A model generated the notes under the pieces. It saw only the letters and a program-made list of their open reading frames with translations, had not been told where the DNA came from and made no database searches. From the sequence record OR846432.1: a stretch of 1,065 nucleotides of DNA; one strand, 5' to 3'. Position numbers and translations under genes: made by a program. How positions within the stretch are numbered: position 1 is the first letter of the stretch; each line of letters opens with the position of its first letter. Shown here piece after piece: positions 1-1,065 of this stretch. The DNA is from a phage.

Positions 1-1065
1 GGGGTACACAACTGTTCAGTGTGAGTCGTTGATTGAAGATATGATCGCGGGCGGGAATTTCAGCTGGCAGGCGTGCCATGAGATGTTTGCGCGTAAAGGG
101 CTTATGTTGCAGAAACAGCATCATGGTCTTGTGATTGTGGATGCGTTTAATCATGAGCTCACACCAGTGAAGGCCAGCAGTATCCACCCGGATTTGACGT
201 TATCCAGGGCTGAGCCGCAGGCAGGGCCATTTGAGATTGCAGGTGCAGATATATTTGAACGGGTGAAGCCTGAATGTCGCTACAATCCGGAACTTGCTGC
301 CAGCGATGAAGTGGAGCCCGGCTTCCGGCGCGATCCTGTACTGCGTCGTGAACGCCGTGAAGCCCGTGCAGCTGCGCGGGAAGATTTGCGCGCGCGTTAT
401 CTTGCATGGAAGGAGCACTGGCGTAAACCCGACTTACGTTACGGAGAACGGTTACGGGAAATTCATGCTGCCTGCCGTCGGCGCAAGGCGTATATCCGTG
501 TGCAGTTCCGGGATCCACAATTGCGTAAGCTGCATTACCATATTGCGGAAGTGCAGCGTATGCAGGCGCTGATCAGGCTGAAGGAGAGTGTGAAGGAAGA
601 GCGGTTGTCACTGATTGAGGAGGGTAAGTGGTATCCTTTGTCCTACCGGCAGTGGGTGGAGCAACAGGCGGTACAGGGAGACAGAGCTGCATTATCACAG
701 TTACGTGGCTGGGATTATCGTGATCGTCGCAAAGACAAGCGACGAACAACGAATGCCGACCGCTGCGTGATTCTCTGTGAACCGGGAGGAACTCCACTTT
801 ATGAAGACACTGGCGTTCTCGAAGCCCGTCTGCAGAAAGATGGCAGTGTGCGTTTTCGTGATCGGAGGAATGGCGAGTTAGTCTGTGTGGATTATGGGGA
901 CCGTGTGGTGTTCTACCATCATCAGGACAGAAATGAACTGGTGGATAAGCTGAATCTGATTGCTCCTGTATTGTTTGATCGTGAGCCAGGAATGGGTTTT
1001 GAACCGGAAGGCTCATATCAACAGTTTAATGATGTATTTGCGGAAATGGTGGCCTGGCATAATGC
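1..1065 (+). CDS. Internal fragment of a large conjugative relaxase-like protein (MOBP family, TraI/NikB-type), truncated by the window at both ends. Codon phase: first complete codon at 2-4, last at 1061-1063.
   Basis: Hand translation of + frame 2 gives 354 sense codons and no stop (GYTTVQCESLIEDMIAGGNFSWQACHEMFARKGLMLQKQHHGLVIVDAFNHELTPVKASSIHPDLTLSRAEPQAGPFEIAGAD...VFAEMVAWHN). An open frame this long is very unlikely by chance at roughly 50% GC. Leu is mostly CTG and Arg mostly CGT/CGC, as in enterobacterial coding DNA. The segment HEMFARKGLMLQKQHHGLVIVD...KASSIHPDL...GPF resembles, from memory, the region after the nickase core of IncP TraI-type relaxases (GL.L...G-hydrophobic-I-D/E...KAS..SRDL...GPF). 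No database search was possible. The coding call is strong; the product call is moderate. Confidence 0.75.

Follow-up and report, generated by a model that had tools for sequence, protein, structure and literature searches.

The 1,065-nt window analysed here (the whole stretch of DNA under study) is, as judged from sequence comparison, an internal piece of nikB, a MOBP-family relaxase gene, and very probably represents codons 489-842 of that gene in the truncated, non-functional form carried by pO157-type plasmids. Over its 1065 bases it shows 100% identity (megablast against PLSDB) with pO157, the well-known virulence plasmid of E. coli O157:H7 str. Sakai (AB011549.2 52440-53504, 'nikB'), with no detectable difference from the nikB pseudogene of that plasmid, and many RefSeq pO157 records, in which the feature is named 'relaxase NikB', are likewise 100% identical. 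The nikB annotation of AB011549.2 spans 51715-53688 (BAA31811.2), and PGAP labels the pO157 copy a pseudogene, 'relaxase NikB; incomplete; missing N-terminus' (L002 7228-9249). Coordinates of features in and around the window are collected in Table 1.

Table 1. Features of the window and of the pO157 pseudogene that contains it (window coordinates unless stated otherwise).
Feature	Position	Strand	Basis and remarks
nikB internal fragment	1..1065	+	Frame 2; codons 489-842 of the 903-codon intact NikB; mapped onto pSFE059 NikB
5'-truncated nikB pseudogene in pO157	-772 to 1249 (L001 7228-9249)	+	PGAP
Third TraI_middle-like module	2..292	+	NikB residues 489-585; PF22863, shuffle-tested module alignment, MAFFT alignment of the three modules
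55-aa peptide CHEMFARKGLMLQKQHHGLVIVDAFNHELTPVKASSIHPDLTLSRAEPQAGPFEI	74..238	+	NikB residues 513-567; core of the third middle module
Arg/Glu-rich region, predicted all-helical	335..727	+	Window aa 112-242, NikB ~600-730; AlphaFold2 (AF2); inside the NF041893 match
C-terminal alpha/beta domain	761..1060	+	Window aa 254-353, NikB ~742-841; AF2 model
A at position 10	10..10	+	Synonymous; G in nearest intact nikB (pSFE059, p655Rt_IncBOKZ, pTA1b)
A at position 618	618..618	+	C in nearest intact nikB genes; Ala694 -> Glu

Frame 2 of the forward strand is free of stops through all 354 codons of the window, a run with a chance probability of about 2e-7 at the window's GC content of 52.6%, and the other two forward frames contain many stops. 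Residue mapping to the intact NikB of plasmid pSFE059 places the first amino acid of this frame at NikB residue 489. A sequence-only reading of the window had singled out a 55-residue peptide, CHEMFARKGLMLQKQHHGLVIVDAFNHELTPVKASSIHPDLTLSRAEPQAGPFEI (window 74-238, frame 2, matching window aa 25-79 exactly), as resembling a MOBP relaxase, and profile searches bear this out: window aa 21-78 (nt 62-235) match Pfam PF22863, 'TraI-like middle domain', with 31.4 bits (E 2.1e-7), above its gathering score of 27.6 bits, and window aa 2-317 align with positions 192-494 of the 502-position profile NCBIfam NF041893, 'TraI/MobA(P) family conjugative relaxase' (E 1e-45). The NF041893 scores of the window (156.7 bits) and of the pO157 ORF (210.9 bits, E 3.7e-62) fall below the curated cut-off of 250 bits because sequence is missing, the homology itself not being in doubt; intact pSFE059 NikB, at 401.8 bits, lies above it. 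PF22863 is the only Pfam match of the window protein, which has no PF03432 nuclease domain. The window encodes non-catalytic parts only, and the same reading was correct in placing the catalytic Tyr and His triad outside it.

The window combines a TraI-like middle domain with descent from an IncI-complex nikB, to which its nucleotide identity is 99.8% for intact IncK2/Z genes and 85-89% for other IncI-complex genes. A protein homologue search returned 27 clusters, of which most are partial NikB entries with 56-99% identity, confirming the NikB name that the matching source records also carry ('relaxase NikB'). This 27-cluster set is shallow for structure modelling, and an AlphaFold2 model built from a 21-sequence alignment reached a mean pLDDT of 66, with the peptide segment at 74-238 only about 30-60. 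Within the Arg/Glu-rich region, which is conserved in the TraI/MobA(P) profile, the model places helices at aa 112-139, 147-168, 172-206, 215-224 and 228-242, with pLDDT per 10-residue block mostly 73-95 (one block at 63). The C-terminal domain is modelled with strands at 254-305 and 333-336 and helices at 310-325 and 340-353 (pLDDT per 10-residue block mostly 65-85, one block at 52); it has no Pfam model and no fold match by Foldseek against the PDB. The Foldseek search of the model returned 0 PDB matches at E <= 0.001 (best TM-score ~0.16), and a PDB sequence search with the window protein gave nothing significant, the one match, at E 0.73, being spurious; neither the model nor the fold search pointed to a function. 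Antisense ORFs of 147 and 119 aa lie within the nikB coding region at window 573-1016 (-) and 159-518 (-). Neither these nor the other antisense and alternate-frame ORFs of the window (92 and 72 aa) match Pfam, and the window has no Rfam match; the ORFs are probably chance products of a moderately GC-rich (52.6%) coding region.

Among the intact genes sampled, the closest is that of pSFE059, a plasmid typed as IncK2/Z, MOBP and MPF_I, whose NikB (WP_001546478.1, 903 aa) is the IncI-complex counterpart of R64/ColIb-P9 NikB. R64 NikB is a MOBP HUH relaxase with the catalytic Tyr in motif I and three His in motif III; it is brought to oriT by the oriT-binding protein NikA, and both HUH motifs, I and III, are needed (PMC12857230). 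Deletion of either nikA or nikB abolishes transfer (PMC6112013). The gene order in pSFE059 is nikA, an 11-nt interval, nikB, a gene for a TolA C-terminal-domain protein, a short hypothetical ORF, trbC, a DsbC-family gene (in the trbB position) and trbA; nikA is annotated there as mobA and matches the NikA-like Pfam family PF21983 (E 3.4e-19). The encoded NikB has a sole early tyrosine, Tyr22, in 'EDLIAYTS', a His triad, HTDTDNLHVH, at residues 158-167, and a PF03432 nuclease domain at residues 84-203 (E 2.8e-30). At a distance of 46 nt upstream of nikA there is an imperfect inverted repeat of 18 nt (pSFE059 locus, L003 5111-5148), 83% complementary with a 2-nt spacer, which is a candidate oriT recognition repeat.

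Intact NikB contains three tandem modules of ~95 aa, at residues 246-340, 366-460 and 489-585 (pSFE059 NikB, L003 5538-8249). Pairwise alignments among these modules give z = 15-21 against 500 shuffles, compared with z < 3 for control segments. Pfam reports only the third module, and region 175-272 of the NF041893 profile is matched twice, by two stretches of the protein. Set against TraI of IncP RP4 and the TraI/MobA(P) family, a family-level comparison made through profiles (NF041893, and PF03432 with PF22863), the likeness lies in the NF041893 alignment and the TraI_middle domain (PF22863) of the window, and the difference in the three middle modules of NikB. The sequence-only reading had expected the catalytic motifs some 200 codons upstream of the peptide. 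In intact NikB the peptide is instead separated from the upstream His triad by 346-355 codons and from Tyr22 by 491, farther than estimated because there are three tandem middle modules and the peptide belongs to the third; a spacing of ~200 codons fits a layout with one module, of the kind implied by the family profile. Relative to such a layout, the module duplication shifts the C-terminal regions of NikB ~240 residues farther from the nuclease domain.

Assignment of the window to the truncated copy or to an intact gene depends on its closest relatives. Records matching the window number 877 in PLSDB and 793 in RefSeq; of the former, 602 are at >=99% identity and 262 at 80-90%, and their ranking was sampled at even spacing in 40 rows. 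The first 15 of these rows are 100% identical and are all pO157-sized plasmids; from 99.8% identity down, the rows carry an intact relaxase gene, and the sampled records at 85-89% are annotated as intact relaxase genes. No gene is listed under the match in 14 of the 15 rows at 100% (AB011549.2, the remaining one, lists nikB), and the PLSDB plasmid gene table omits pseudogenes. A chimeric query, consisting of an intact nikB 5' end followed by the window, ranks intact genes first and finds no perfect match, and the three best intact genes have two mismatches each, all at window positions 10 and 618.

We consider it improbable that the nikB of the window is intact and functional and resides on a conjugative plasmid of the IncK2/Z, IncB/O or a related IncI-complex type, sharing the pO157 alleles. 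Were that so, nikA, oriT, catalytic motifs in the same ORF and a TrbC coupling protein would be expected around it, and the ~200-codon distance would still be wrong. Conjugative MOBP/MPF_I plasmids commonly carry an intact nikB with 99.2-99.8% identity to the window, 530 PLSDB records cover the nikB 5' end, and the record listing was sampled, with the DNA-level comparison spanning PLSDB, RefSeq and complete E. coli genomes; at positions 10 and 618, nevertheless, the window departs from all three best-scoring intact genes, and all 15 sampled records at 100% are pO157-sized. Moreover, even sampling yields an estimate of ~330-350 exact-match records, in agreement with the 347 records without a nikB 5' end (877 minus 530). 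We therefore assign the window to the truncated copy because of its exact identity and the two diagnostic bases, as seen in the sampled listing of 877 records: in that listing its sequence is shared with records carrying the truncation junction and not with intact genes.

The truncation itself can be placed precisely. Homology between pO157 and the IncK2/Z plasmid pSFE059 takes the form of a single 2.67-kb island (pO157 locus, L001 7228-9898 = L003 6228-8903) at 99.1% identity, whose left end is nikB codon 231, codons 1-230 being deleted in pO157. Three-way alignment with an F-type plasmid resolves this left junction to the base, F-type '...CATGAACA' being followed by nikB 'GCCTGGCG...'; in the letters of the junction, the F-type leading region (psiB, psiA, hok) extends in pO157 as far as '...GTACGGGCATGAACA' (L001 7227), where nikB 'GCCTGGCGACGCGGG...' takes over. 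At base level the same alignment reveals no meaningful microhomology at the hok-nikB junction. The junction lies 773 nt upstream of the window, which itself contains none. When a 3-kb query spanning the junction is searched, F-type plasmids match positions 1-1231 only and IncK/I plasmids 1229-3066 only, and the hok-nikB fusion occurs in 286 of 5426 complete E. coli genomes.

With only 2 mismatches over the window, pSFE059 NikB shares the three middle modules, the helical region, the C-terminal domain and the downstream TolA-C-domain gene with the pO157 copy; unlike pO157, pSFE059 retains codons 1-230 with Tyr22, the His triad and PF03432, together with nikA, the candidate oriT repeat and an MPF_I backbone with trbA/B/C. 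The TolA-C-domain ORF was carried into pO157 on the 2.67-kb IncK/I-type island along with the nikB remnant, where it is intact (143 aa; PF06519, E 5e-14; L001 9317-9748, ~250 nt downstream of the window end), and it comes after nikB in pSFE059 too.

In pO157 the nikB frame is closed by an F-side TGA (L001 7222-7224) one codon before the junction and opens at 7225, 775 nt upstream of the window. The first in-frame start is NikB Met246 (ATG, L001 7276), from which a 657-codon open frame extends to the native stop, ending at 9249. There is no inactivating mutation inside the window, and the window alone does not show that the gene is dead. It is conceivable that NikB residues 246-903 are expressed in a new role, for example as a dominant-negative binder of the NikA or coupling protein of incoming IncI/K/B/O plasmids, in which case the O157:H7 NikB fragment would be a relaxase decoy lowering transfer or entry of those plasmids, a domesticated function akin to fertility inhibition; we rate this as very unlikely. 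Among the sampled pO157 copies the frame starting at Met246 is uninterrupted and shows 100% conservation up to the native stop, but recent clonal descent of O157:H7 explains this. The parts retained are non-catalytic regions that would be expected to make protein contacts. A dN/dS of ~0.19 against the nearest intact gene (6 synonymous, 4 non-synonymous substitutions), equal to the value between intact genes, also counts in favour, but ten substitutions are too few to separate constraint from history preceding the truncation or to reveal relaxed selection. A promoter/terminator consensus scan, weak evidence either way, placed two promoter-like sites inside hok/mok and detected nothing sigma-70-like in the stretch from hok to the ATG at 7276, where there is also no obvious ribosome-binding sequence. 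The remnant is interrupted by IS1203 in O157:H7 strain Z1825 (NZ_CP062718.1 73104-77482) and split in NZ_AP026117.1, with the break at window position 848, and because some pO157 variants disrupt it further in this way, it appears dispensable. Both PGAP and the published account of this plasmid group (PMC11229322) treat it as a pseudogene.

We return to the reading of the remnant as a non-functional pseudogene, for which the catalytic parts and transfer context missing from pO157 are central. The motif I Tyr is not found in pO157 when NikB residues 1-230 are searched against the whole plasmid by tblastn (best E 0.5). Neither HxDxxxxHxH nor a looser pattern occurs in the 675-codon nikB open frame, and in a Pfam search the 657-aa ORF matches PF22863 only, with no PF03432. 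The sequence-only reading had proposed inspecting the upstream part of the same ORF for the Tyr and His-triad motifs and had agreed beforehand to count their absence against itself; in pO157 that ORF has neither. Across the whole 92,721-bp plasmid, blastn and tblastn detect no trace of the IncK segment comprising oriT, nikA and the nikB 5' end, of NikA, or of the trbA/B/C side, and the region of the 18-nt candidate oriT repeat is not found on pO157 either. Relocation of the missing nikB 5' end to another site on pO157 is rejected by the same whole-plasmid searches, which found none.

The pO157 copy accordingly has none of what distinguishes a functional MOBP relaxase: no catalytic Tyr, no His triad, no PF03432 domain, a score below the NF041893 cut-off, and no oriT and NikA upstream. 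The gene upstream of the remnant is hok, not nikA, so that the expected oriT and small accessory protein gene are absent from the position predicted for them, and the anticipated coupling protein gene is likewise missing, the trbC/B/A side having no homology on the plasmid. The transfer genes left on pO157 are F-type only, namely traI (the C-terminal, 3' part), traX and finO; the replicon carries neither a coupling protein with mating-pair formation genes nor a usable oriT, and PLSDB types it as non-mobilizable. The proposal that the locus belongs to a conjugative or mobilisable plasmid or ICE therefore fails for the exact-match plasmid, which is non-mobilizable and without IncI-type transfer genes, and the predictions of context (nikA, oriT, trb genes) hold only for the intact ancestor type, such as pSFE059. 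Relaxase activity is impossible for pO157 nikB because the catalytic domain, nikA, oriT and the IncI-type transfer machinery are all gone.

These observations are consistent with the following origin and fate. On an intact plasmid, NikA binds to oriT and brings in NikB, whose N-terminal HUH nuclease (Tyr22, His triad 158-167) nicks the transfer strand; the third middle module, the charged helical region and the C-terminal domain plausibly provide relaxosome or coupling-protein contacts and substrate recognition. In pO157, illegitimate recombination would have joined a 2.67-kb IncK2/Z-type scrap, comprising nikB codons 231-903 and the TolA-C-domain ORF, to an F-type leading region after hok. 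The catalytic domain has gone, as have nikA, oriT and all of the IncI-type machinery for transfer, so that the nikB remnant is no longer able to serve as a relaxase and is very probably a vertically inherited pseudogene in a non-mobilizable, domesticated plasmid.

Two other observations concern related sequences. The EHEC O26 mosaic plasmid pO26-CRL (NC_013728.1; L004 5165-8229), typed as IncFIB, IncI-gamma/K1 and IncQ1 and as mobilizable, has nikA and nikB both intact near IS3 and espP, at 87% identity to the window; fragments of IncI-complex oriT regions, decayed to varying degrees, appear to turn up repeatedly among EHEC virulence plasmids. A Leclercia/Enterobacterales cluster (559 aa, 61% identity, 27 contigs) has the TraI_middle Pfam domain only and no nuclease domain, and may be another N-terminally short NikB-like ORF.

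The pO157 nikB remnant is already known, having been annotated and published as a pseudogene, and the finding has little importance beyond correct annotation. Of the plasmids in PTU-E5, the group of pO157 homologues, 164 (98%) carry non-functionalised traI and nikB, and PTU-E5 and pO157 are described as non-transmissible and domesticated (PMC11229322); the truncated nikB agrees with this published view of a domesticated, non-mobilizable pO157 carrying transfer-gene pseudogenes. The relaxase-like signature here does not imply a mobile element, and in genome scans mobility should not be deduced from a matching non-catalytic relaxase domain until catalytic motifs and the oriT and accessory-gene context have been checked.
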